Below are positions 2,556-44,846 of a DNA stretch of 64,000 nt, piece by piece. The first letter of the stretch is position 1; each line of letters begins with the position of its first letter. The notes beneath the pieces were generated by a model. It saw nothing but the letters and a program-made list of their open reading frames with translations. It ran no database searches and was not told where the DNA came from. Position numbers and translations under genes: made by a program. Origin of the DNA: a virus; IMG/VR virus record IMGVR_UViG_3300024252_000004, positions 280,770 to 344,769 of that record; one strand, 5' to 3'.

Positions 2556-2646
2556 AGGACTGTAGCTCAGTTTTTGGTTAGAGCGCTCGCCTGATAAGTG
2601 AGAGGCCACTTGGTATACGTTGGTTCAAATCCAACCAGTCCTACCA
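2556..2646 (+). tRNA. tRNA-Ile(GAT)-like with 16-nt variable region (11-nt insertion)
   Basis: acceptor AGGACTG/CAGTCCT, D arm GCTC..GAGC, anticodon stem CTCGC/GTGAG loop CTGATAA; body matches bacterial tRNA-Ile(GAT) except ACTTGGTATAC inserted before T stem GTTGG/CCAAC. Confidence 0.55.
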
Positions 2647-2658
2647 TAAGGAAATGAA

Positions 2659-2871
2659 ATGCTTACTATTGATCAAGTTAGAAAGCTAAAGCGTGGCGAT
2701 AAGGTTGTGGATACCTACGGAAAGGTTTATGACTTTGGATATATTTCCCAAACGAATGCTGCCGTAGTTTACGATGAAGGCGAATACAATATGCAGGATG
2801 CTTCAGCTTTCAGACTACTTTCTGACAAAGAGGTTTCTGAAAAACCATTCTATAAGCTGAGGATCAAATGA
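2659..2871 (+). CDS. hypothetical protein
   Basis: 70-aa ORF. Confidence 0.4.
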   Translation: MLTIDQVRKLKRGDKVVDTYGKVYDFGYISQTNAAVVYDEGEYNMQDASAFRLLSDKEVSEKPFYKLRIK

Positions 2872-3107
2872 TAAACAAAATCGATTTTAGCAAAATCCCT
2901 AAAGAAGACCTATCTGTTTACGAACTATGGGTTGTGGCAACGTGGTCAGGGAATCCTTATACCGATGATCCTGGGAGTTGGTATATTGAAGATGGTCTGT
3001 ATCTAAAAAAGGAATCCGCCATTCTTGCTGCCTCAGTAAGGGGCGTCCGTAAGGATCAAGTTATGAGTCTGAGCGATTTCATATCGAAATGCAATAGGGG
3101 TTACTAA
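2868..3107 (+). CDS. hypothetical protein
   Basis: 79-aa ORF, overlapping stop/start with neighbours. Confidence 0.4.
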   Translation: MINKIDFSKIPKEDLSVYELWVVATWSGNPYTDDPGSWYIEDGLYLKKESAILAASVRGVRKDQVMSLSDFISKCNRGY

Positions 3108-3304
3108 TGGATTTGTGGCTACATCTGATGGAATGCAGTTACCCGGAGGGTTGCACTTGCGGCACCTCCGCATACAATGCTTTGGCAGAAAAAGTTGCTG
3201 AGCAGCAGTCTCTTATGAGAGAAGCTGCCAAAGCCTTGTCTGACTGGAACAACGGACAAGGGGTGGATGAAGATTTGGAGCTAATAAAGAAGCTTCGAAG
3301 TTAA
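3107..3304 (+). CDS. hypothetical protein
   Basis: 65-aa ORF. Confidence 0.35.
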   Translation: MDLWLHLMECSYPEGCTCGTSAYNALAEKVAEQQSLMREAAKALSDWNNGQGVDEDLELIKKLRS

Positions 3305-3305
3305 A

Positions 3306-3656
3306 ATGGGCTGCCCAAATTGTGGTGGAGAATCATATCTGACGACTTATCGAGCGAGATACCCTCGTGCAGGTAAGAGTCTTTTGGTTAAGTCAAAATG
3401 TATGATGTGTTCATCCTGTAGGACCCGGATAGGTCCTTTCAAATTCTTGACACCAGCGTTGGCAAATGAAAATGATGCTAACGCCGAGATAGAATGGGAA
3501 AGAAAATATAATGAGAAGATGCCTCCAGAATATCCGATGGGTCGTATAAGAAAGATTATGCGAACAGAGGAAGGTAAAAGGCGTGTAGCTGAAGCTTTTG
3601 GAAAAGCTTTGTACAAAGAAGTAGAGAAAACCTCTAAGGAGAGTAAAGATGATTAA
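3306..3656 (+). CDS. zinc-ribbon protein (CPNCG..CMMCSSC)
   Basis: 116-aa ORF with two Cys pairs. Confidence 0.45.
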   Translation: MGCPNCGGESYLTTYRARYPRAGKSLLVKSKCMMCSSCRTRIGPFKFLTPALANENDANAEIEWERKYNEKMPPEYPMGRIRKIMRTEEGKRRVAEAFGKALYKEVEKTSKESKDD

Positions 3657-4020
3657 TCAGAGCGATGTTGTTGAATACCTAAAGAACGTTAGCGTTATTG
3701 AACTTAGAGGTCTTATCGGGACTCTGGAGGATGAGCTTGGAGTTAAGATTCCAGAATACACAGCACCTTCTCAGTACGATCTCGGTTTTGGTGGCGGAGA
3801 GGTAGAGCAGACCGAGTTTACCGTTGTCCTTCAGGGCTTTGAGGGTAAGAAGGTTGCACTGATTAAGGTCGTGCGAGCACTTACAGGTCTCGGTCTAAAG
3901 GATGCAAAGGTCGCGGTAGAGTCCGCTCCTTATGTGATTAAGGAAGGCGTTGATAAGGGCGTAGCAGAAGAGGTTGCCGCTTCTATGAGAGAGGTTGGTG
4001 GCTTGGTAGACATTGTATAA
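3649..4020 (+). CDS. rplL: ribosomal protein bL12 (L7/L12) homolog
   Basis: SD AAGGAGAG then ATG 3649; N-terminal dimerisation/L10-binding region and C-terminal TGLGLKDAKVAVESAP..KEGV align with bacterial RplL. Confidence 0.8.
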   Translation: MINQSDVVEYLKNVSVIELRGLIGTLEDELGVKIPEYTAPSQYDLGFGGGEVEQTEFTVVLQGFEGKKVALIKVVRALTGLGLKDAKVAVESAPYVIKEGVDKGVAEEVAASMREVGGLVDIV

Positions 4021-4208
4021 TGTTGAATGAAGCCATCGCAGAAGCTCTTGACGCGCCTTATAAACAGGCGCGTCAAGAGGGAGCAGAGGAAGAGAGAAAA
4101 AAGATCGCTGACTGGTTGAGAGAAACCAGCAAGCACAGTAAGATAGCAAGTACCTTGCTGCGATTAATGGCTGATGAAATTGAGTCTGGCGATTATGGCA
4201 AGGGTTAA
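4020..4208 (+). CDS. hypothetical protein
   Basis: 62-aa ORF. Confidence 0.35.
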   Translation: MLNEAIAEALDAPYKQARQEGAEEERKKIADWLRETSKHSKIASTLLRLMADEIESGDYGKG

Positions 4209-4214
4209 CAATTT

Positions 4215-4288
4215 TGGAGATTAGTTTAATCGTAAAATAGGTGGCTCTGACCCGCCCGTTACTGGTTCAAATCCAGTATCTCCAGCCA
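4215..4288 (+). tRNA. tRNA, anticodon CTG (Gln), atypical D arm, CCA encoded
   Basis: acceptor TGGAGAT/ATCTCCA perfect, anticodon stem GGTGG/CCGCC loop CTCTGAC, T arm ACTGG-TTCAAAT-CCAGT; D loop lacks GG. Confidence 0.5.
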
Positions 4289-4305
4289 TCATCATAGGTG
4301 ATACA

Positions 4306-4545
4306 ATGAAGATCGATATGGAGATTCTTAAGAGTCGAGTCAAAGGGACAGTAAACTTTTCTTTTTTCAGAGCAGGACAGCTCTGGTATGTATGTGAGGA
4401 CGGGTGGGAATTTCCTATTCCTGTCGAAGATACGGGCAATGCACAGGGAAGCTCTCCCACTTTCTCTGCTCAGATGAAGGGCATTTATATGATGCGCTGG
4501 GTAAAGAAGGCTATGGAAGCAGAACTACAAAGGGATAGTGAGTGA
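4306..4545 (+). CDS. hypothetical protein
   Basis: 79-aa ORF. Confidence 0.4.
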   Translation: MKIDMEILKSRVKGTVNFSFFRAGQLWYVCEDGWEFPIPVEDTGNAQGSSPTFSAQMKGIYMMRWVKKAMEAELQRDSE

Positions 4546-4808
4546 GCATTTTTTCTAAAGTTATTGGCGAGAATATCTTTTTTAAACCAGAATTGTATCC
4601 GAGCGGAAATTGCTATGCTCATTATCCTTTGTCAACAAGGGATGTGAGTATTATATTGGAATATGATACGGGAAGATTTATCTATTACAAAATGAGACCA
4701 AGTGGATATGTTACAGGTGATCATATTTGTGCTGGGAAATTTTCGTCATACCTTTCCGAAAAGGAAAAGAAGTCATTTATTGAAATGTTGGAAAAGATCG
4801 AATCGTAG
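4542..4808 (+). CDS. hypothetical protein
   Basis: 88-aa ORF; 3' end overlaps tRNA start. Confidence 0.4.
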   Translation: MSIFSKVIGENIFFKPELYPSGNCYAHYPLSTRDVSIILEYDTGRFIYYKMRPSGYVTGDHICAGKFSSYLSEKEKKSFIEMLEKIES

Positions 4809-4876
4809 CTCAGTCCGGTAAGAGCACTCGGCTGATACCCGAGGGGTCGGTAGTTCAAATCTACCCGGTTCGACCA
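4799..4876 (+). tRNA. tRNA-Ile(GAT), CCA encoded
   Basis: acceptor CGAATCG/CGGTTCG, D arm GCTC-AGTCCGGTAA-GAGC, anticodon stem CTCGG/CCGAG loop CTGATAC, T-loop TTCAAAT. Confidence 0.7.
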
Positions 4877-4888
4877 TTAAAATGGGAG

Positions 4889-5311
4889 TTGGTTATGTCT
4901 AAACTGTTGAAAAAAAGACCCACTAAGCCAAGGGCACCAACTGAACCAAAAGAAATTTTGTCTTCGTATTCGTCAAAAACAATATACAGTTCATCTATTG
5001 AAGGTAGCGAGATTTTGGAACTCATGAAAGAGTGTAATTGTAGTATTACAGATTTATCTTTTCTCTTTTATGGAGACGACAACTATTCTTGTGACGAGAT
5101 AGAAATAAGTATTAACGCTCCGCTAATGAATAACAAGTATTCTGAGCAGATGGTTGTCTACGAGAGTAAGCTTGAAATCTATCACAAAAAGATGGAAATT
5201 TTCACGGCAAAGCTTTCTCTGTGGAATGAACAGAAGAAGCAAAGAGATGACGAGGCAAAGGCAAAGAAAATTGAAGCTCTTGAGTATAAGCTATCTCAGC
5301 TAAGGAAGTAG
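4889..5311 (+). CDS. hypothetical protein (coiled-coil C-terminus)
   Basis: 140-aa ORF. Confidence 0.45.
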   Translation: MVMSKLLKKRPTKPRAPTEPKEILSSYSSKTIYSSSIEGSEILELMKECNCSITDLSFLFYGDDNYSCDEIEISINAPLMNNKYSEQMVVYESKLEIYHKKMEIFTAKLSLWNEQKKQRDDEAKAKKIEALEYKLSQLRK

Positions 5312-5312
5312 T

Positions 5313-5795
5313 TTGACTCGCCTTAGTGACATACTCGAACGAATATCTGCGAACCCTTACAAGACTATGTCTACTCCGAAGCCCTATGGGAAGTCGGATG
5401 GAGAAAGGCTTGCGGGAGAGTTCTACCTTCAACTTAAGAAGCTTGATTGCATTCGCGGAATTGGATCGGGCATTCTTGAGATCATCGGAACAGATTATGT
5501 TTTGATGGTAAGAGGCACTAAGAGCACAGCAGAGTTGTTTTTTGCCAACAGGGTTTACATCAAACAGGCAAGGAAGCAGTCCCATGAGGAATCAGTAAGT
5601 CTTGATGCAGCCTTTCGTCTCTCTAAAGTGAATGATGAATTCGATGAATTCTTAGCAATTCCACATTTCTTAGATGCTATGGAGGAAATGCCTGAAGAGT
5701 TGCAGGGTTACATCGTAACTAACATTCCGGACTTTGCAGATTATGATGTTTCTGATAGGGTTAGAAAGAATTCTGAGTGGTTGAAAAACGTATAA
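5313..5795 (+). CDS. hypothetical protein
   Basis: 160-aa ORF from TTG; alternative ATG at 5370. Confidence 0.45.
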   Translation: MTRLSDILERISANPYKTMSTPKPYGKSDGERLAGEFYLQLKKLDCIRGIGSGILEIIGTDYVLMVRGTKSTAELFFANRVYIKQARKQSHEESVSLDAAFRLSKVNDEFDEFLAIPHFLDAMEEMPEELQGYIVTNIPDFADYDVSDRVRKNSEWLKNV

Positions 5796-5813
5796 TGCTC
5801 CCATGAGGTGAGC

Positions 5814-6689
5814 ATGAAACCAGTAGTTCTTTTTGATATGGATGGCACATTAACTGAGCCAAGAAAAACAGTAGAAGCTCCGATGCTTCGGGCGTTAGAG
5901 ACGCTGATGCAATACGCTGTAGTAGGCATTGTATCCGGCAGTGATTACGATTACATCTATCAACAGATGGAACTTGATAAAAATGATTTAAAAGATGTTT
6001 TGATTTATCCTTGCAATGGGACAAAGAGATATGTCTATGATCAAGTTAAGAAACGTTGGGAAAATACGTTTTCTGTCGATATGAAAGAGGAGATCGGGGG
6101 CGAGAAGCTTTATAGTTTAATGGAGCTACTTTTAGATTGGCAGCTATTCTATCTTGAATCTGCAAAGAAAAATGGTTTCAAGACGCCCCTTACGGGTTTG
6201 CACTTACAGAACAGAGGCTCCATGATTAACTGGTGCCCAATTGGACGAGGCGCAGATCACGACGAAAGGAAATTGTTTCAGGACTATGATGCAAATACTT
6301 CTTGGCGAGAAGAGACCCTTCCCTTGTTGGAAGATGAAATCGGACTAAGAGTAGAAGGAGTAACAGTTGTCAAAGGCGGATCAACATCATTCGACATCTA
6401 CCCAGACGGATGGGATAAAAGATTTGTCAAAAGATTCCACGAAGGACAAGAACTCTATTTCGTTGGAGATCGATGCGAAAAAGGTGGGAACGATTACGAG
6501 CTTTACGCCGATCTTAAAAGATCCAAAGAAAGTCGCACCTTTGAGCGCAAACAGCTATTCTTTCCCTGGTCTAAAGTCAATCAAGATGAGTGCAAATATC
6601 AAGATTCTTTTAACACCGGATCTCCGGAAGAAACAAGCAGGATCATTGAAGAGGATCTCATCCCGCGTATCGTTAAGGCGCGAGTTTGA
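5814..6689 (+). CDS. phosphomannomutase, eukaryotic-type (HAD-IIB, PMM family)
   Basis: SD GAGGTG then ATG 5814; VLFDMDGTLT motif I, SFDIYPDGWDKRF and GGNDYEL match PMM family; C-terminal ~40 aa extension. Confidence 0.75.
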   Translation: MKPVVLFDMDGTLTEPRKTVEAPMLRALETLMQYAVVGIVSGSDYDYIYQQMELDKNDLKDVLIYPCNGTKRYVYDQVKKRWENTFSVDMKEEIGGEKLYSLMELLLDWQLFYLESAKKNGFKTPLTGLHLQNRGSMINWCPIGRGADHDERKLFQDYDANTSWREETLPLLEDEIGLRVEGVTVVKGGSTSFDIYPDGWDKRFVKRFHEGQELYFVGDRCEKGGNDYELYADLKRSKESRTFERKQLFFPWSKVNQDECKYQDSFNTGSPEETSRIIEEDLIPRIVKARV

Positions 6690-6732
6690 GGAATGTCAAG
6701 ATGAAGTGACAGAGCGCATAGGGTATTTTCAA

Positions 6733-7125
6733 ATGAGCGAGAAAACACTTAAGCCTATTGAACCTATTGATGATATGGTTATGACCATTATCGCTGACCT
6801 TAAGGAACTTGATTGTGTTACAGAGGTAATGGAATCTGGGTGGGAGGTTGGTTATAGGATTCAAGGAACGCCTTTGACTCTTATGGTGGCTCACGATGAC
6901 ATCAAGCCAACATTTCTATTTGTGAGAACAGAAATCTCAGAGGATCTTTTTAACTCATTTTGGGTTGATGACATGAATACAAAAGACCCAAACAAGTTGA
7001 GCCTTTATGTTCCAGTTCGCAAGCTATTCGATTTGGTAGATTTGCCAGAAGAAATGATTGAGTTTTTGGCGGTCAGGATTTCAATGTTTGTTGATGGAGA
7101 TATCTCCGAGCAGCAAGACTTTTAG
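6733..7125 (+). CDS. hypothetical acidic protein
   Basis: ATG 6733 just after PMM stop; same frame open from 6367, alternative start 6586. Confidence 0.4.
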   Translation: MSEKTLKPIEPIDDMVMTIIADLKELDCVTEVMESGWEVGYRIQGTPLTLMVAHDDIKPTFLFVRTEISEDLFNSFWVDDMNTKDPNKLSLYVPVRKLFDLVDLPEEMIEFLAVRISMFVDGDISEQQDF

Positions 7126-7406
7126 TCCTCGTCTTTATCTTCTTTCTTTTCTTTTGGAGCTTCGCCACCAAAGAGCTTTTCCATAAGCTCAGCAAAGTCG
7201 GAGGCATCCTCTGCTTCTTCTGGCATTTCTTCGCCATGACTATGTTCACATATATCAAGCGTAGGCTCATCGGGCATAGGAGATAGTCCCAAAGCAGATG
7301 CAATTTCTGCTGGATCTACTCCTTCTAAAATCAAAATCTCTTGAGCCTCTTTTTTGAAATTAAGGCTGTAGAGGTTTCTGCTTAAACTTACAAGTTTAGT
7401 GTACAT
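7122..7406 (-). CDS. hypothetical protein with acidic Lys/Glu/Asp tail
   Basis: start taken at MYTKLVSL (AGGAGTG 7 nt upstream on minus strand); longer ORF to 7538 overlaps the RF gene start and is likely spurious. Confidence 0.4.
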   Translation of the reverse strand: MYTKLVSLSRNLYSLNFKKEAQEILILEGVDPAEIASALGLSPMPDEPTLDICEHSHGEEMPEEAEDASDFAELMEKLFGGEAPKEKKEDKDED

Positions 7407-7457
7407 AGTACTGTCACTCCTACTAAGATTAAGTATAATAGTAGGACTGGAGGTTCT

Positions 7458-8146
7458 AATGAATTCGATCATATTGGAAATTAAAGCTGCCGAAGGCGGC
7501 ACAGATGCAAAGCTCCTTGTTGATGAACAGTTGGCCATTTATAGGAGATACTGTTCTCGGAGGTCTCTTTGAGTTAGCTCTCTTAGATTCCAGAAGCGGT
7601 TTTATCAGATGCAGAGTCAGCGGCAAAAACGTCAAAAAACATTTTAGGCATGAGCCTGGAGGCCACAGATGGCAAAGGGTTCCTCCGACAGAGAGACGAG
7701 GAAGGGTTCATACTTCTACGATCACTGTCGCTGTCCTACCGGAAGTAACTGAATCTGAAGTTAAGATTAGCGAAAAAGATTTAGAATGGAAAGCCTTTAG
7801 GGGTTCTGGTCCCGGCGGTCAGCATAGAAACAAAACTGATTCTGCTGTGTCGCTTCACCATAAGCCTACTGGAATCAAGATCCGTTCTGAATCTCAAAAG
7901 AGTCAGAAGCAGAATAAGGACACCGCTCTTGCAATATTGAGAGCGAGGTTGCATTCTGAGCAGAGAGAGTCTCAGTCTTTGCGACGCAGTAATATGAGGA
8001 AGAGCCAAGTGGGCTCAGGTATGCGCGCCGACAAAATCAGGACGATCAGGTTGCAGGACGGACAAGTTACGGATCACAACACTGGAAAAAGAATCTCTGC
8101 GAAAAAATATTTGCGCGGAGACTTGGAAGGTCTATTTGAAAAGTAA
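7458..8146 (+). CDS. class I peptide chain release factor, RF1-like (PxT = PPT), lacking domain 1; needs +1 frameshift at 7570 and has an additional +1 frame break at 7499/7501
   Basis: SD GGAGG + ATG 7458; MNSIILEIKAAEGG (frame 0) / TDAKLLVDEQLAIYRRYCSRRSL (frame +1, stops at UGA 7570) / ELALLDSRSGF..GGHRWQRVPPTERRGRVHTS..SGPGGQHRNKTDSA..DKIRTIRLQDGQVTDH (frame +2) align contiguously to RF1. Confidence 0.75.
7559..7573 (+). other. prfB-type programmed +1 ribosomal frameshift site
   Basis: GGAGG-UCU-CUU-UGA-G: SD-like element 3 nt upstream of CUU UGA, same architecture and spacing as E. coli prfB AGGGGG-UAU-CUU-UGA-C. Confidence 0.7.
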
Positions 8147-8336
8147 AGAAGCGATTGCAAAAGTGATGTTTTGGAGAATCGTAATTTCGATTCCGTTAAG
8201 CACGATAGTTACATATTTGTATTACGGTCAACTCTTCAAGGCTATTGGGTTTGTCATCTTGATGAACGTAATGATGACGGCGGCACACTTCGCTTTTGAA
8301 AAGGTTTGGCCTAAGATTTGGAGGAAGCTTGAGTAG
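8136..8336 (+). CDS. small membrane protein
   Basis: 66-aa ORF with two hydrophobic helices. Confidence 0.4.
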   Translation: MKSKEAIAKVMFWRIVISIPLSTIVTYLYYGQLFKAIGFVILMNVMMTAAHFAFEKVWPKIWRKLE

Positions 8337-8434
8337 AAAAGAACACTGCCGGGTTTATTGATCCTGAAATTGCCATCAGACTTGGGGCCAATCGTCAAGG
8401 TTTTGGCGGGAACTGATAAAGTTTAGAGCAAAAT

Positions 8435-8463
8435 TTGCTAAATTTCTCGCAAGATGGTATATA
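8435..8463 (+). promoter_or_regulatory. sigma70-like promoter, family copy 2
   Basis: TTGCTA-N17(AATTTCTCGCAAGATGG)-TATATA; tRNA 8525 follows 62 nt downstream. Confidence 0.6.
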
Positions 8464-8524
8464 TGATTCACGGGATCGAAACGTGCCGACGTAGTTTGGA
8501 TGCCATCTTCGAAAAACAAAATAA

Positions 8525-8617
8525 TGCGGGGTCGACTAGTCTGGCCCATGTCACCAGTCTCATAAGCTGGCTCTGAGTATACCTCAATCGTTGGTTCAAA
8601 TCCAACCCCCGCACCCA
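8525..8617 (+). tRNA. tRNA-like, anticodon CAT on class-II scaffold (19-nt variable arm), CCA encoded
   Basis: acceptor TGCGGGG/CCCCGCA perfect, D stem GAC/GTC, anticodon stem CCAGT/GCTGG loop CTCATAA, variable arm hairpin TGAG-TATAC-CTCA, T arm identical to tRNA 2556. Confidence 0.5.
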
Positions 8618-9550: not shown

Positions 9551-9623
9551 AGCTGAGTAGCTCAATCGGTAGAGCAACAGGTTCATATCCTGTAGGTTGT
9601 AGGTTCAAGCCCTATCTCAGCTA
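9551..9623 (+). tRNA. tRNA-Met(CAT)
   Basis: acceptor AGCTGAG/CTCAGCT, D arm GCTC..GAGC, anticodon stem ACAGG/CCTGT loop TTCATAT, T-loop TTCAAGC. Confidence 0.65.
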
Positions 9624-9683
9624 CCGTAAAGTAGAAACATAGTTTGTGTTTCATTTAAACAATCATCAAAGGGGAGAATCATA

Positions 9684-13130: not shown

Positions 13131-13664
13131 TCAATTCCGATCTGTTCCACCACTGAATCGTCCATCACCTGATAGGAAGTGATCAACTTCGTGACAGGTC
13201 GGACAAACAATCTCTAAGTTCTCAATCGAGTTATTCTCTCTATTGCGATCTTTATGATGAACTTGTAGAACTTCAGGATGCTTATCGTATCCGCAATGAG
13301 AGCATATCTGTTCAAGATGCTCTTTTGCAGTTTTGCGATAATCCTTTCGGTTATCAGTATAGTGCGGCGGATGAATTTCTTTTATCCCTCCTATCCTTTG
13401 TGCAATATCTTTGCAATTTCTTGAGCAAAAAACAAATCCGCTTTTAGATGCAGCAATCTTAGAGGCAGACCTGTAAAAGTCTTTATCACAAATAGCACAA
13501 ACACAATTTGGCTTTTGTATCTTCGGATTTTTCTTTCTCCATTCAAAAGAGCATTTGCGATTGCAAAATTTTGCGTTTCCTCTGTTTAATTCTTTAATTT
13601 CTGCATCAAATTGCGTATAACAATTTAAGCAACTTTTCTTAATGGTTCTACCTTTGTAAGACAT
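13131..13664 (-). CDS. HNH homing endonuclease
   Basis: HHKDRNRENNSIENLEIVCPTCH HNH motif plus multiple CxxC pairs; sits between tRNA-Tyr and tRNA-Cys. Confidence 0.75.
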   Translation of the reverse strand: MSYKGRTIKKSCLNCYTQFDAEIKELNRGNAKFCNRKCSFEWRKKNPKIQKPNCVCAICDKDFYRSASKIAASKSGFVFCSRNCKDIAQRIGGIKEIHPPHYTDNRKDYRKTAKEHLEQICSHCGYDKHPEVLQVHHKDRNRENNSIENLEIVCPTCHEVDHFLSGDGRFSGGTDRN

Positions 13665-14365: not shown

Positions 14366-14452
14366 GCTACTGTGGCCGAGCGGTTGAAGGCAGCAGGCTG
14401 TTAACCTGCCTGGGAAACCACATCATAGGTTCAAATCCTATCGGTAGCGCCA
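14366..14452 (+). tRNA. tRNA with tRNA-Ser body (D arm TGGCCGAGCGGTTGAAGGC, long variable arm, G73) but anticodon GTT
   Basis: acceptor GCTACTG/CGGTAGC, anticodon stem GCAGG/CCTGC loop CTGTTAA (one change from Ser GCT loop CTGCTAA), CCA encoded. Confidence 0.5.
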
Positions 14453-14728: not shown

Positions 14729-14978
14729 GGGTCGAGATAACGCGGTCAAGTAGAGTTCCCAAAGGGCTGTTTATGATACGGTCACAATCGAACGACCTAG
14801 AGTTATACCTGATTTGAATTCGGGCAATGGGCTGGCCAATAGTCCTTAGACGTAATCCTGTTGAAGTCGTCGCAGGTCCCACTTGAGGGTTGTTTTGGAC
14901 ATGGGTGCTTAGTGTCAACGGCAAGCACGATTGGCTGTTAACCAATTAGTTTGGGTTCAAATCCCAAAGTACCCGCCA
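14721..14978 (+). ncRNA. ORF-free structured RNA with tRNA-like 3' end (unknown class)
   Basis: no ORF of 60 aa or more; 3' TTGGG-TTCAAAT-CCCAA + AGTACCC-G-CCA; 5' GCGGGTA can pair with TACCCGC. Confidence 0.3.
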
Positions 14979-15288: not shown

Positions 15289-15704
15289 AAAGAGTTTATG
15301 TTGATATGGACGGAGTCCTTTGTGATTACGTTGCAAAATTTACAGAACTCCGTAACGAAGGAAACAAGTTTCCTCAGCAAAGCTTTGACTTCTTCAGAAG
15401 TATGAAGCCTATGCCATCGGCTCTTGCAGCTATGGGAATACTATCTAAACATTTCGATGTTTGGATTTTGACTAAGCCTTCCTACAAAAACCCTATGTCT
15501 TATACAGAAAAGAGACTTTGGGTTGAGGACCATCTTGGTCTGGATTGGTGTAAGAAGCTGATCCTTTGTCCTGATAAGGGATTGGTTATAGGAGATTATC
15601 TTATTGATGATTTCTTGTGGCCTGAATTTCAAGGTGAACAAGTTCATTTTGGTTCAAATAGATTTCCAAATTGGAGATCGGTAATAGATTATATGCGCCC
15701 GTGA
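15246..15704 (+). CDS. HAD-superfamily 5'(3')-deoxyribonucleotidase-like phosphatase
   Basis: VYVDMDGVLCD motif I (DxDxV); start may be TTG 15284 rather than ATG 15246. Confidence 0.55.
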   Translation: MGMATRSCSGRNKLKRVYVDMDGVLCDYVAKFTELRNEGNKFPQQSFDFFRSMKPMPSALAAMGILSKHFDVWILTKPSYKNPMSYTEKRLWVEDHLGLDWCKKLILCPDKGLVIGDYLIDDFLWPEFQGEQVHFGSNRFPNWRSVIDYMRP

Positions 15705-15785
15705 GCCGAGTGGTTGATGGCCCCAGACTCTTAATCTGGTACAGGTAGTGCTGCAACGTAGGTTCGAATCCTACCGGGCGTACCA
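15695..15785 (+). tRNA. class-II scaffold tRNA with anticodon CTT (Lys codon AAG), A73, CCA encoded
   Basis: acceptor GCGCCCG/CGGGCGT, D arm GCC-GAGTGGTTGAT-GGC, anticodon stem CCAGA/TCTGG loop CTCTTAA, 18-nt variable arm, T-loop TTCGAAT. Confidence 0.5.
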
Positions 15786-18213: not shown

Positions 18214-18290
18214 GCCCTATTAGCATAGCGGTCCAATGCTGCGGCCTTTTAAGCCGATGATCCGGGGTTCGAATCCCTGATGGGGTACCA
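18214..18290 (+). tRNA. tRNA-Lys(TTT), CCA encoded
   Basis: acceptor GCCCTAT/ATGGGGT (two G-U), anticodon loop CTTTTAA, T arm CGGGG-TTCGAAT-CCCTG. Confidence 0.6.
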
Positions 18291-21690: not shown

Positions 21691-21768
21691 GGGGAATTAG
21701 CTCAATTGGCCAGAGCGGCAGATTCTAGACCTGCGACAGTGTGGGTTCGAGCCCCACATTCCCTACCA
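21691..21768 (+). tRNA. candidate amber-suppressor tRNA, anticodon CTA, tRNA-Trp-like body
   Basis: acceptor GGGGAAT/ATTCCCT, D arm GCTC-AATTGGCCA-GAGC, anticodon loop TTCTAGA on stem GCAGA/CCTGC (A-C mismatch at 31-39), 6-nt variable, T arm GTGGG-TTCGAGC-CCCAC, CCA encoded. Confidence 0.5.
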
Positions 21769-23238: not shown

Positions 23239-23756
23239 TGAAATACAAAGTAAAGAAAGGTGCGATGAACTCGGGCGGCATTAGTAAACTCATAGAGTTT
23301 GCAGAAACTCTGAACTATACGCCGTGTTCAACTTGGCTCGGATATTACAAAGAAAAGGTATTCTACCTTGGCGATATGAGCAAAGAAGATGTTCCGAAAA
23401 TTCTGCACAGTCTTGCTCCTGCGATCCTCGGAAAGCTATCGGCTCTTGGAGAGCTAAGCGAAGACAATCTTTTTAATCAAATCGTGATTAAGAAGTATGC
23501 CGAAGGAGACGAAGGCAAGCCGCATTTTGATCCAAGAGATATTAAGGGGAAGGTCGTTGCAATTCACTTTGGTGACTTTGAGCTTAGTACGGTAAGGTTT
23601 GATGGCGAAGAAGTAATGGTTGACTCTGGGGATGTCATCATCCGACAGGCAACATCGGGTTACACGATGGGGCCAAAGTACAACGTAAGTGCAGTTGAGG
23701 GCGGCACAAAATATGTCCTCGAATTCCAAACAATCACTAAGGAGAAACCCTCTTGA
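23238..23756 (+). CDS. hypothetical protein
   Basis: 172-aa ORF from GTG overlapping previous stop. Confidence 0.45.
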   Translation: MKYKVKKGAMNSGGISKLIEFAETLNYTPCSTWLGYYKEKVFYLGDMSKEDVPKILHSLAPAILGKLSALGELSEDNLFNQIVIKKYAEGDEGKPHFDPRDIKGKVVAIHFGDFELSTVRFDGEEVMVDSGDVIIRQATSGYTMGPKYNVSAVEGGTKYVLEFQTITKEKPS

Positions 23757-24238
23757 AAACAAGAGTAAATTCTGATATCATAGCAAGAAGAGTTCTTCTC
23801 ATTGGAGGAGACGGTTCCAAGGTTGGCATTTTTCAGACAAGAGATGCCATAAGTAAAGCACAGGAGGCAGGTCTTGACCTGTTGCAGGTCAGCGCAGATC
23901 AGGAAGTTCCCGTGTGTAAGATTGTCGATTATGGCAAGATGCTTTATCTTCTAAAGAAGGGCAAGAAGGCTAAGGGATCAAGGGTTGTTGTGAAGGAAGT
24001 GAAGTTCGGACCTAACACTGGTGATGCTGATATTCAGGTCAGAGTTAAGGCTGCGAACAAATTCCTCTCCAAGGGTAACCACGTCAAGTTTACCGTCAGG
24101 GTGAAGGGTCGTGCAAACGCTCACAGAGACCTTGTCATCGATAAGCTTGCAGAAGTTCTTGAGAAGGTAGAGGGGAAAGTAGAGAAGGCTCCATCCTTCT
24201 CAGGCAACATATGCTCGGCGCTTGTCGTGCCGGAGTAA
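23753..24238 (+). CDS. infC: translation initiation factor IF-3 homolog, UUG start
   Basis: SD AAGGAGA then TTG 23753, no in-frame ATG before conserved NTD; LIGGDGSKVGIF..EAGLDLLQVSADQEVPVCKIVDYGK and KEVKFGPNTGDADIQVRVKAANKFL..RVKGRANAH match IF3 N and C domains. Confidence 0.8.
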   Translation: MKTRVNSDIIARRVLLIGGDGSKVGIFQTRDAISKAQEAGLDLLQVSADQEVPVCKIVDYGKMLYLLKKGKKAKGSRVVVKEVKFGPNTGDADIQVRVKAANKFLSKGNHVKFTVRVKGRANAHRDLVIDKLAEVLEKVEGKVEKAPSFSGNICSALVVPE

Positions 24239-24249
24239 ACTCATAATGT

Positions 24250-24327
24250 ACGTGCCCATGTTCCAAGGCAAGGCGACAGAGATTCCAAATCTCCGTGGGT
24301 GGGGTTCGATACCCCAGGTGCGTGCCA
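24250..24327 (+). tRNA. tRNA-Trp(CCA), CCA encoded
   Basis: acceptor ACGTGCC/GGTGCGT (G-U pairs), anticodon loop TTCCAAA, T arm TGGGG-TTCGATA-CCCCA; D arm atypical. Confidence 0.55.
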
Positions 24328-25312: not shown

Positions 25313-25399
25313 GGCTTTGTGGCGGAATTGGTATACGCAGGGGACTTAAAATCCCCCGGTCATTAGACCTTAAGGGTTCGAGTCCCTTCGGAGCTACCA
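25313..25399 (+). tRNA. tRNA-Leu(TAA), class II, CCA encoded
   Basis: Leu-type D arm TGGCGGAATTGGTATACGC, anticodon stem GGGGA/TCCCC loop CTTAAAA, 15-nt variable arm. Confidence 0.7.
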
Positions 25400-29949: not shown

Positions 29950-30026
29950 GGGTGGCGTGGTGTAATTGGCTAACACGCTGGACTGTCTATCCGGAATTTG
30001 GGGTTCAAATCCCCCGTTGCCCGCCA
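29950..30026 (+). tRNA. tRNA, anticodon read as GTC (Asp-like) with U37; uncertain
   Basis: acceptor GGGTGGC/GTTGCCC (three G-U), anticodon stem CTGGA/TCCGG loop CTGTCTA, T arm GGGG-TTCAAAT-CCCC, CCA encoded. Confidence 0.45.
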
Positions 30027-44443: not shown

Positions 44444-44846
44444 GGGGGCGTTTTGGATTCGACCGGGTAACAGATAGGAATAGTGCAAGCCGATCAAGGT
44501 AACTCAGATCGTTATAAGCGTTACAAAAAACAAACTAGTTGACGACTATTCATTCGTGTACGCAAACGCAGGCAGAGGCTTCGGCGCTCCTGTAGTAGCA
44601 TACGCCTAATTCCGATTTAGGCATGTGGACTCTGTGTTCCATATATCCAAACACAGATAAGTGGTTGAACGCACTGACATAAACATTGTTCAAAAATGGA
44701 GTAGCCCGAAAGGGAGGAGGCGTCTATCATTTGGCGTCAGGGGATAAAATGAATACTTTGCCTATTTAGAGAAATGGGATAAGCTTGTGAACGACTTGAA
44801 ATTGACGTTATGCGACACGAGGGTTCGACTCCCTCCGCCTCCACCA
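44444..44846 (+). ncRNA. ssrA: tmRNA (SsrA), standard one-piece
   Basis: 5' GGGGGCGTTTTGGATTCGACCGGG and 3' GAGGGTTCGACTCCCTCCGCCTCCACCA match tmRNA termini; acceptor GGGGGCG/CGCCTCC with G3-U70 and A73; tag frame GCA AAC GCA GGC AGA GGC TTC GGC GCT CCT GTA GTA GCA TAC GCC TAA (ANAGRGFGAPVVAYA). Confidence 0.85.

Follow-up and report, generated by a model that had tools for sequence, protein, structure and literature searches.

Which amino acid a tRNA delivers, and whom it escapes, can depend on its variable region, and the locus studied here raises the question of why a virus would encode transfer RNAs (tRNAs) with isoleucine and methionine anticodons that carry an additional hairpin in that region. 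According to textbooks, long variable arms in bacteria are limited to the tRNAs for Leu, Ser, Tyr and Sec. The locus lies in a stretch of 64,000 nucleotides (nt), positions 280,770 to 344,769 of the IMG/VR virus record IMGVR_UViG_3300024252_000004, which is called the window below and whose own numbering is used throughout. An initial annotation had flagged two genes in it, a tRNA-Ile(GAU) starting at position 2556 and a CAT-anticodon tRNA starting at position 8525. We show that such arms are real, conserved and mostly phage-borne, and that they are placed on tRNAs that keep the identity marks of their cognate amino acids. As for their role, we tentatively favor, while holding it as something less than probable, the reading that they are functional, normally charged phage tRNAs, protected by the added arm against defences that cut tRNAs.

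The first gene (2556..2646, + strand) encodes a 91-nt tRNA-Ile(GAU) with a class-I tRNA-Ile body, in which the variable region has 16 nt, the discriminator is A and CCA is encoded, as supported by ARAGORN, Rfam, minimum free energy (MFE) folding and the family alignment described below. Its variable region, AGGCCACTTGGTATAC (2603..2618, + strand), consists of AGGCC followed by ACTTGGTATAC, and the 11 nt at 2608-2618 extend beyond the normal 5-nt variable loop. Within the variable region, a mini-hairpin of G.U, C-G and C-G pairs closes the loop ACUU and is followed by the 3' tail AUAC. The second gene (8525..8617, + strand) encodes a 93-nt initiator-like tRNA, called tRNA-Met(cat) by ARAGORN and supported by Rfam and MFE folding. 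Its 7-bp acceptor stem is perfect, its D stem has 3 bp and its anticodon loop reads CTCATAA. Its 19-nt variable arm, CTCTGAGTATACCTCAATC (8571..8589, + strand), contains a 4-bp stem UGAG/CUCA, a 5-nt loop UAUAC and three unpaired bases on each side. Both tRNAs gave full-model matches to Rfam RF00005 (60.4 bits for 2556 and 43.3 bits for 8525, gathering score 29), and the unconstrained MFE folds of both were five-arm cloverleaves in which the extra hairpin was GCC/GGU in 2556 and UGAG/CUCA in 8525. ARAGORN, Rfam and free-energy folding thus agree on an extra variable-region hairpin in both tRNAs, and the tools folded this arm rather than an ordinary class-I tRNA. The details given initially, namely the 11-nt Ile insertion, the loop CTCATAA, the 3-bp D stem and TGAG-TATAC-CTCA, could all be read in the sequence.

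The initial list of long-arm tRNAs was correct in these two entries but incomplete, since two more are present in the same array. A tRNA-Asn(GUU) of 87 nt (14366..14452, + strand) has a class-II-shaped body, a Ser/Tyr-type D arm GCC-GAGCGGTTGAA-GGC, discriminator G and a variable arm at 14410-14424 that reads UGG-GAAA-CCA, then CAUC. A tRNA-Lys(CUU) of 91 nt (15695..15785, + strand) likewise has a class-II-shaped body, with its variable arm at 15740-15757 and discriminator A. All four tRNAs exhibit the cloverleaf features of RF00005 (a 7-bp acceptor stem, G18 G19, a 5-bp anticodon stem, a 7-nt loop with U33, a 5-bp T stem, a TTCRANN loop, and a discriminator followed by CCA). A variable region of more than 10 nt forming a stem-loop, as in class-II architecture, was found in 2556 (16 nt, 3 bp) and 8525 (19 nt, 4 bp), while the anticodons of the four tRNAs (GAT, CAT, GTT and CTT) are not those of Leu, Ser, Tyr or Sec. 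We also considered a tRNA intron, either of group I, for which the criterion was a self-splicing fold longer than 200 nt, or of the archaeal type, for which it was a bulge-helix-bulge motif with a splicing endonuclease. This candidate was rejected, as the insert is only 11-14 nt, Rfam detects no intron and no bulge-helix-bulge motif is visible; the conservation of the hairpin and 3' tail layout as part of the tRNA also counts against it.

Each long-arm tRNA has a canonical partner on the + strand of the window. As the initial annotation stated, a class-I tRNA-Ile(GAU) is encoded at 4799..4876 and a CAT tRNA of canonical length at 9551..9625; the latter, with A1-U72 and C11-G24, is elongator Met or Ile2-like. 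The partners of the Asn and Lys tRNAs are a class-I tRNA-Asn(GUU) at 14903..14978 and a class-I tRNA-Lys(UUU) at 18214..18290. ATA codons are frequent in the window (12 per 1000 in 69 genes), which has no tRNA-Ile(TAT), and a lysidine-type tRNA-Ile2 may be present among the two CAT tRNAs, 9551 being the likelier candidate.

The two flagged tRNAs had been taken for a duplicated and modified pair, based on features that are indeed present: the T arm GTTGGTTCAAATCCAAC is common to 2556 and 8525, and the pentamer TATAC occurs in both. However, an identical 17-nt T arm is found in 2 of the 465 tRNA pairs in the window, the other pair being the unrelated Pro-2429 and Lys-15695, and when the window's long variable regions are compared in pairs, 2 of 45 have a word of at least 6 bases in common, the 6-mer GTATAC shared here having p ~0.03 in shuffles. 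Because other pairs in the window share sequence likewise, the shared T arm and TATAC are at chance level. In addition, 2556 and 8525 have 61% identity, which is no more than random pairs from the array show, and their respective relatives have different T stems, loop and tail sequences and contain no GTATAC. Considering this identity, the chance-level sharing and the separate families to which they belong, the duplicated-pair reading fails. The long (2556) and short (4799) Ile tRNAs are not recent duplicates either, because only 65% of their positions are identical, and the statement that 2556 matches bacterial tRNA-Ile almost base for base was too strong, the match to E. coli tRNA-Ile being 73% with the gap counted. 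The 10-mer TTGGTATACG of the Ile insert (2610-2619) recurs at 25328-25337 in the D arm (D-loop/stem) of the tRNA-Leu(TAA) at 25313, giving two sites, one of which is the query, against 0.06 expected. An origin of the insert by recombination was considered and rejected, as the relatives lack TTGGTATACG, and the recurrence is probably due to chance.

When the insertion was looked for in other phages, as had been suggested, a separate conserved family was found for each tRNA, in which a normally class-I isoacceptor has gained a variable-region hairpin. For tRNA-Ile(GAU), pattern scans gave seven distinct members, all from phage-like tRNA arrays, with the insertion in the same place. Besides the window, one is located on an 80-kb IMG/VR contig and the rest on metagenome contigs with 2-33 tRNAs each; the IMG/VR relative adjoins a transfer-messenger RNA (tmRNA). 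Alignment with E. coli tRNA-Ile and with 4799 placed the insertion after the normal AGGYY variable loop and ahead of the T stem, at about position 47, and the variable regions of the family follow the layout AGGCC-loop(4-7)-GGT-NNAC. In the stems of the family, 99.5% of the cells were paired and 14 of 24 pairs showed compensatory changes, whereas none of 500 shuffles matched this pairing and shifted partner columns gave 25-42% paired. Because pairing is kept with compensatory changes, these are long-diverged tRNAs that still work. The identity set of E. coli IleRS, reportedly established by Nureki in 1994, comprises GAU, A37 A38, A73, U12-A23, C29-G41 and C4-G69. In the family, A73 and U12-A23 are found in seven of seven members, C4-G69 in six of seven and C29-G41 in four of seven. 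In 2556 itself, GAU, A37 A38, A73, U12-A23 and C29-G41 are present, with A4-U69 instead of C4-G69.

A second pattern identified six members of the CAT family on IMG/VR contigs of 19-351 kb. Their variable arms have six different stem sequences of 4-5 bp, all of them paired, with a mean of 4.5 bp compared with 3.04 +/- 0.31 in shuffles (0 of 1000 as high). All six have G10-C25 and A11-U24, and the 12:23 pair switches between C-G and G-C. The anticodon stems contain G30-C40 followed by U31.G39 in five members and by U31-A39 in the sixth (L025), which also differs in its anticodon loop (CCCAUAA instead of CUCAUAA). Positions 1 and 72 are unpaired in five of the six (CxA, AxA or UxU), and the discriminator is mostly A. 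One contig (L056) encodes a 77-nt class-I twin (1070-1146) and a 91-nt long form (1331-1421) with the acceptor TGCGGGG, which is a natural pair with and without the arm.

The 3' half of 8525 matches tRNA-Met genes, a median of four per genome, in all 5,426 E. coli genomes, and when 8525 was aligned with one such gene, the acceptor pairs 2-7:66-71 were identical and the T loop and A11:U24 were the same. From its C1xA72 and its three G-C pairs, we take this gene to be the initiator tRNA-fMet. Because acceptor stem, T loop and A11:U24 match it, the CAT family is, by all appearances, derived from an initiator tRNA. The E. coli initiator, 8525 and all six family members share A11:U24, while 9551 has C11-G24. 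The other two classical hallmarks are lacking in 8525: positions 1 and 72 are paired (U1-A72), and only one of the three G-C pairs at 29-31:39-41 is present (A29-U41, G30-C40 and U31.G39), the family as a whole having one or two. The discriminator of 8525 is C73.

Arms of this kind are not limited to Ile and Met. A pattern that requires a Ser-type D arm and, after it, an anticodon loop with GTT, CTT or TTT matched 40 IMG/VR contigs, many of them 100-457 kb, and ARAGORN called 27 distinct long-arm tRNA-Asn and 13 long-arm tRNA-Lys at these loci. The same loci contained long-arm tRNAs with anticodons that the pattern does not select, namely Met (5), Thr (4), His (2), Ile (2), Cys, Pro and Gly. 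With Asn and Lys excluded, a variable region of at least 11 nt was found in 11 of 80 tRNAs with U36, which decode ANN codons, compared with 5 of 212 other tRNAs (Fisher p = 5e-4). Analysis of the Asn family using MAFFT and RNAalifold recovered the four standard stems with many compensatory changes but not the variable arm, because arms of unequal length do not align; variable arms were tested instead by counting hairpins per sequence against shuffles.

Cultured phages also carry these tRNAs, under plain annotation: long-arm tRNA-Asn is present in Escherichia phage 4MG, Cronobacter GAP31, Klebsiella VIK251 and Enterobacter EC152, and long-arm tRNA-Lys in Caulobacter CcrBL9 and CcrSC and Microcystis Mwe-JY26. 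Partial matches occur in two candidate carriers, Xanthomonas XacN1 (tRNA-Lys) and Cellulophaga phi4:1 ('tRNA-OTHER'). Phage 4MG further encodes a tRNA-Lys(TTT) (NC_022968, L053 3740-3823), annotated although ARAGORN does not call it, in which the variable loop has the normal 5 nt and a 20-nt D loop contains the hairpin GAC-GTAT-GTC. In cellular genomes, the same pattern matched 8 places among 185,579 bacterial and archaeal species (one genome each), of which three were genuine, and all three sit in arrays of 11-17 tRNAs within 8 kb. In the cultured bacterium Thalassospira xianhensis MCCC 1A02616 (NZ_JPWA01000001, L087 5414-5596), two adjacent long-arm tRNA-Lys (CTT and TTT) adjoin a 10-tRNA array on the opposite strand; this locus may be a prophage or a tRNA-array element.

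This distribution bears on whether the arm has a function at all. Insertions could simply be tolerated, by the ribosome as well as by synthetases that read the anticodon, as neutral or near-neutral variants, pairing being kept only since an unstructured insert harms folding. The Ile insert is indeed small and weakly paired, no part of a tRNA tolerates changes in length better than the variable loop, phage arrays contain many odd tRNAs, and a single Streptomyces LeuRS reportedly charges both short-loop and long-loop tRNA-Leu (PMC6614811). We nevertheless regard functionless arms as unlikely. The arms are kept across very divergent phages and hosts in molecules whose stems have otherwise fully diverged, they are concentrated in ANN decoders, and just three genuine matches were found in cells, where insertions should be equally tolerable. 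The arms also arose more than once and at different sites, the starting points being an insertion in a class-I Ile tRNA, a remodelled initiator, class-II-like Asn and Lys scaffolds and, in the 4MG tRNA-Lys, a D-loop hairpin. Such different starting points suggest selection for an added arm as such and, together with its retention across distant phages, lead us to infer that the added arm is under selection.

If the arm is functional, it could change the amino acid that the tRNA carries. According to the initial annotation, SerRS, LeuRS or TyrRS could read the arm, and Ile, Met, Asn and Lys codons would then be translated partly as Ser, Leu or Tyr. The nev-tRNAs (PMC3333845) and allo-tRNAs (PMC5389517) provide precedents for class-II shapes with other anticodons that LeuRS or SerRS can charge, and in the Asn family a Ser-type D arm occurs together with G15:C48 and G73. 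The identity elements of each synthetase argue otherwise. Recognition by E. coli-type LeuRS depends on A73 and A15:U48 (PMC9976931), a combination that none of the four long-arm tRNAs in the window possesses; all four have G15:C48, while 29 of 33 phage tRNA-Leu have A15:U48. For tRNA-Ser, we took as criteria a long variable stem, about one unpaired 3' base, G1-C72, G2-C71 and G73, and the long-arm tRNAs do not conform to them: 2556 has A73 and 8525 has C73, and the 2:71 pair is variable in long-arm Asn, Lys and Thr tRNAs, G2:C71 not being conserved, whereas 22 of 24 phage tRNA-Ser begin with GGA or GGT. The Asn, Lys and Thr arms, with 3-4 bp and 3-4 unpaired 3' bases, resemble the arm of phage tRNA-Tyr (3 bp, 3 unpaired bases) and are unlike that of phage tRNA-Ser (6 bp, 1 base). 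As for TyrRS, the discriminator of the Asn family is G73, not A73, and a GUA anticodon is found in none of the long-arm tRNAs. Furthermore, the body of the Ile tRNA is class-I.

The discriminators instead follow the amino acid of the anticodon, being those of the short isoacceptors with the same anticodon. The discriminator of Asn is G in both long and short forms (ARAGORN gave T or C for three long Asn tRNAs through an 8-bp acceptor call, but by eye all are G), and that of Ile is A in both. Lys tRNAs have A or U, the U73 cases sharing a locus with short U73 Lys tRNAs, and Thr tRNAs have U in long and short forms, both of which start with GCC. The homologue of Lys 15695 in contig L018 has the anticodon TTT, and this switch from CTT stays within lysine. 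We then compared the codons of the phage GroEL gene with the residues of a solved homologue. AAG corresponded to K at 5 of 12 positions (the others being Q, R, E and S), AAC to N at 6 of 9, ATT/ATC to I, L, V or M at 34 of 40, and ATG to M or V at 6 of 7. Sense-codon reassignment was rejected on this alignment, and the code looks standard. In addition, the long-arm form is the sole tRNA-Asn in the sampled 8-kb tRNA region of 4MG, according to both ARAGORN and the annotation. Because the discriminators track the anticodon, class-II determinants are absent and codon meaning is standard, cognate charging is predicted to be much more likely than mis-charging; we consider mistranslation by these tRNAs very unlikely.

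In the shielding reading that we favor, the usual synthetases that read anticodon and discriminator (IleRS, MetRS, AsnRS and LysRS) would still charge the long-arm tRNAs, which would decode normal ANN codons. The added arm would alter the surface where anticodon stem and variable loop meet, and defence enzymes of the host or of rivals that cut or modify tRNAs and target the class-I versions would fail to bind or cut the phage copies, so that translation could go on during infection. This shielding step is proposed by analogy, the one precedent from experiment being a phage tRNA-Tyr. In E. coli tRNA-Tyr, Retron-Eco7 PtuAB cuts within the variable loop, whereas the tRNA-Tyr of phage SP15, whose variable loop is 5 nt longer, is not cut and loses its rescue activity when the loop is shortened (PMC12673091). 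Related targets are known: AriB of the PARIS system cuts tRNA-Lys at 40/41, beside the variable region, and phage T5's tRNA-Lys is resistant (PMC11464382), while a bacterial Schlafen protein cleaves tRNA-Lys(UUU), Met(CAU) and Ile(CAU) (PMC13056530). An RNA ligase gene in the window (PF09414; 39859..40554, + strand), possibly with a tRNA-repair function, fits an investment of the phage in tRNA integrity.

The link to host anticodon nucleases made by the initial annotation is plausible, although the decoy form in which it was put is highly improbable. In that form, the long-arm tRNAs would not take part in translation and would act as sponges that titrate tRNA-targeting nucleases or toxins. Over-expressed tRNA-Tyr, whether from host or phage, does neutralise PtuAB toxicity (PMC12673091), and the C73 of the CAT tRNA in the window is unusual. 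A decoy, however, needs no encoded CCA, no intact 7/5 acceptor/T helices and no conserved anticodons, nor does it need aminoacylation determinants such as G1-C72/C2-G71 in Thr and C4-G69 in Ile.

Several points weigh against shielding of charged, translating tRNAs. The anticodon loops of the long-arm tRNAs are canonical (CU-NNN-AA), unlike the loop mutations by which evasion is known to occur, and no specific nuclease is known to be one that would be blocked by such an arm on tRNAs for Ile, Met, Asn or Lys. The extra stem of the Ile family (3-5 bp) has a mean of 3.86 bp compared with 3.30 in shuffles, which is marginal (p ~0.05), and its pairing is unproven because the search pattern fixed GCC/GGT; in the window the hairpin has only 3 bp. 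The bias toward ANN decoders was drawn from loci picked for their long Asn and Lys tRNAs. The long arm faces class-II synthetases (AsnRS and LysRS) and might hinder them. Finally, 8525 departs from both initiator and elongator norms and may be a decaying copy.

The surrounding genes raise a further possibility, that of phage partners for the long-arm tRNAs. The array on the + strand of the window contains 31 tRNA genes between 874 and 34845 and a tmRNA at 44444-44846 (ARAGORN), and Rfam supports the tmRNA and 28 of the 31 tRNAs. Interleaved with it are small open reading frames (ORFs) and translation genes, which encode a YqeY/GatB-tail protein, ribosomal protein L7/L12, an RF1-like protein, IF3, the RNA ligase and GroEL. 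The RF1-like protein (7505..8146, + strand), encoded between the two flagged tRNAs, is truncated to 213 amino acids (aa) with the end of the PCRF domain and the RF-1 domain, and the phage-encoded IF3 (23753..24238, + strand; IF3_N and IF3_C domains) bears on the initiator-like tRNA. A bona fide class-II LysRS of 477 aa (L011:465-1898; NCBIfam NF001756, 538 bits against a cutoff of 468) lies about 7-8.5 kb upstream of window position 1 on the same contig, where two further tRNA-Gln are also found upstream of the window. The translation island of the phage thus has at least 33 tRNAs, together with the tmRNA, LysRS, IF3, the RF1-like protein and L7/L12. The phage LysRS and the long-arm tRNA-Lys(CUU) are encoded in one genome; no phage IleRS, MetRS or AsnRS was found within the 84 kb examined.

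Based on this neighborhood, the arm could be a handle that marks phage tRNAs for phage partners such as LysRS, IF3 and modification or processing enzymes, or that spares them from a phage nuclease destroying host tRNAs. The genes for LysRS, IF3, the RF1-like protein and L7/L12 lie near the long-arm tRNAs, and the CAT tRNA is initiator-like yet without the G-C pairs normally checked by IF3. On the other hand, IleRS, MetRS and AsnRS are missing from the 84 kb, and no synthetase gene is located beside the long-arm Asn in the sampled tRNA region of 4MG, a phage of 148 kb; if 4MG has no AsnRS of its own, host enzymes must suffice there. We judge this handle quite unlikely. If it were true, the phage would have a partly separate decoding set, its own initiator included. 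A broader view, doubtful but worth more weight, joins the self mark to protection. Large phages would have repeatedly evolved a third kind of tRNA, comprising class-I isoacceptors, chiefly the ANN decoders Asn, Lys, Ile and Thr and an initiator-like Met, on which a short Tyr-type arm or, in the 4MG tRNA-Lys, a D-loop hairpin would mark a phage-private decoding set, initiator included, that is invisible to tRNA-targeting immunity and possibly selectable by phage LysRS or IF3.

With regard to the source, independent assemblies of up to 130 kb from ENA, JGI and Logan contain the 18 kb of the locus that were compared, at 99.98-100% identity, so the long-arm genes are not assembly artefacts; because all locus-bearing contigs are this similar, selection is not readable from population variation. 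No close relative was found among 50,697 deposited phage genomes (megablast, 7.4 kb query). Given the recurring assemblies and the lack of a close deposited relative, the source is an uncultured huge marine phage from aquatic metagenomes. The exact word formed by T arm and insert had zero matches in the IMG/VR collection as searched, which was read as absence of the phage from that set, and the neighboring ORFs of 351 aa and 299 aa had no IMG/VR relatives. The RF1-like gene has relatives in four huge phages, none of which has tRNAs within 10 kb of it. Promoter and terminator counts around both flagged genes were within about one standard deviation of shuffles, and as such the flagged tRNAs look co-transcribed with the adjoining ORFs.

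Other features of the array were observed along the way. The tmRNA scores 81 bits with Rfam and encodes the tag peptide DDYSFVYANAGRGFGAPVVAYA. A tRNA with the amber-suppressor anticodon CTA (21691-21768, labeled tRNA-Pyl by ARAGORN) is present alongside the truncated RF1-like protein; general recoding of TAG was ruled out, and TAG terminates 12 of the 69 window genes. An HNH_3-type endonuclease gene on the - strand (13131-13664), between tRNA-Tyr and tRNA-Ala, is probably a homing endonuclease within the tRNA array. The cloverleaves of tRNA-Trp(CCA) (24250-24327) and of the second tRNA-Asp(GTC) (29950-30026) are irregular: the acceptor stem is separated from the D stem by three bases, and the T and acceptor stems have terminal mismatches. 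Three tRNA-Pro are encoded in the window, all with the anticodon TGG.

Among named classes, nev-tRNAs and allo-tRNAs come nearest to the phage long-arm tRNAs; eukaryotic nov-tRNAs, which Hamashima reportedly described in 2016, were grouped with nev-tRNAs for this comparison. The nematode nev-tRNAs have Leu-type bodies, are charged with leucine and are class-II with Gly or Ile anticodons (Hamashima 2012, PMC3333845), whereas the phage long-arm tRNAs lack LeuRS and SerRS determinants, keep the cognate ones and are bacterial-type phage genes. Allo-tRNAs and the (8/4) tRNA-Ser/His are likewise irregular long-arm tRNAs with varied anticodons in bacterial and phage tRNA clusters, but they have 8/4 or 9/3 helices and tRNA-Sec-like D arms (Mukai 2017, PMC5389517); the four long-arm tRNAs in the window are all 7/5, with ordinary D loops. 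In Streptomyces coelicolor, type I and type II tRNA-Leu show that one synthetase can accept short-loop and long-arm versions, although that system is cellular and runs the opposite way, a class-II family having gained a short-loop member (PMC6614811).

For their proposed mode of action, parallels are found among phage tRNAs that evade defence. The SP15 tRNA-Tyr is also a phage isoacceptor with a variable region longer than that of the host, and there the extra length is required for escape (PMC12673091); that tRNA, however, was already class II, whereas the arms described here are on isoacceptors that are class I throughout cells (Ile, initiator-like Met, Asn, Lys and Thr). The T5 tRNA-Lys that resists PARIS and phage tRNAs with mutated anticodon loops (PMC11464382, PMC10264068) similarly show that arrays supply nuclease-insensitive replacements, Lys being a recurrent target, yet they escape through substitutions in the anticodon stem-loop, in contrast with the canonical loops and added helix seen here. 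By analogy, the long-arm tRNAs would work most like these defence-evading phage tRNAs, by means of a helix added to class-I isoacceptors. A full-text literature search, which covered few subscription journals, gave no description of phage long-arm Asn, Lys, Ile, Thr or initiator-like tRNAs, and long-arm phage tRNAs of class-I isoacceptors are apparently undescribed so far.

Taken as a whole, phages from those of E. coli to those of Caulobacter, cyanobacteria and the ocean repeatedly carry such arms on their tRNAs for Ile, initiator-like Met, Asn, Lys and Thr, and by the pattern tested cellular genomes have almost none. The question of their role can be tested now in the cultured carriers 4MG, GAP31, CcrBL9/CcrSC and Mwe-JY26. 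If the arm redirects charging or the choice of partners, nature would have provided an orthogonal tRNA design that genetic-code engineering could use directly. If it protects, it would be a new and easily recognised signature of the arms race over tRNAs and would contribute to an explanation of the near-complete tRNA sets found in big phages.

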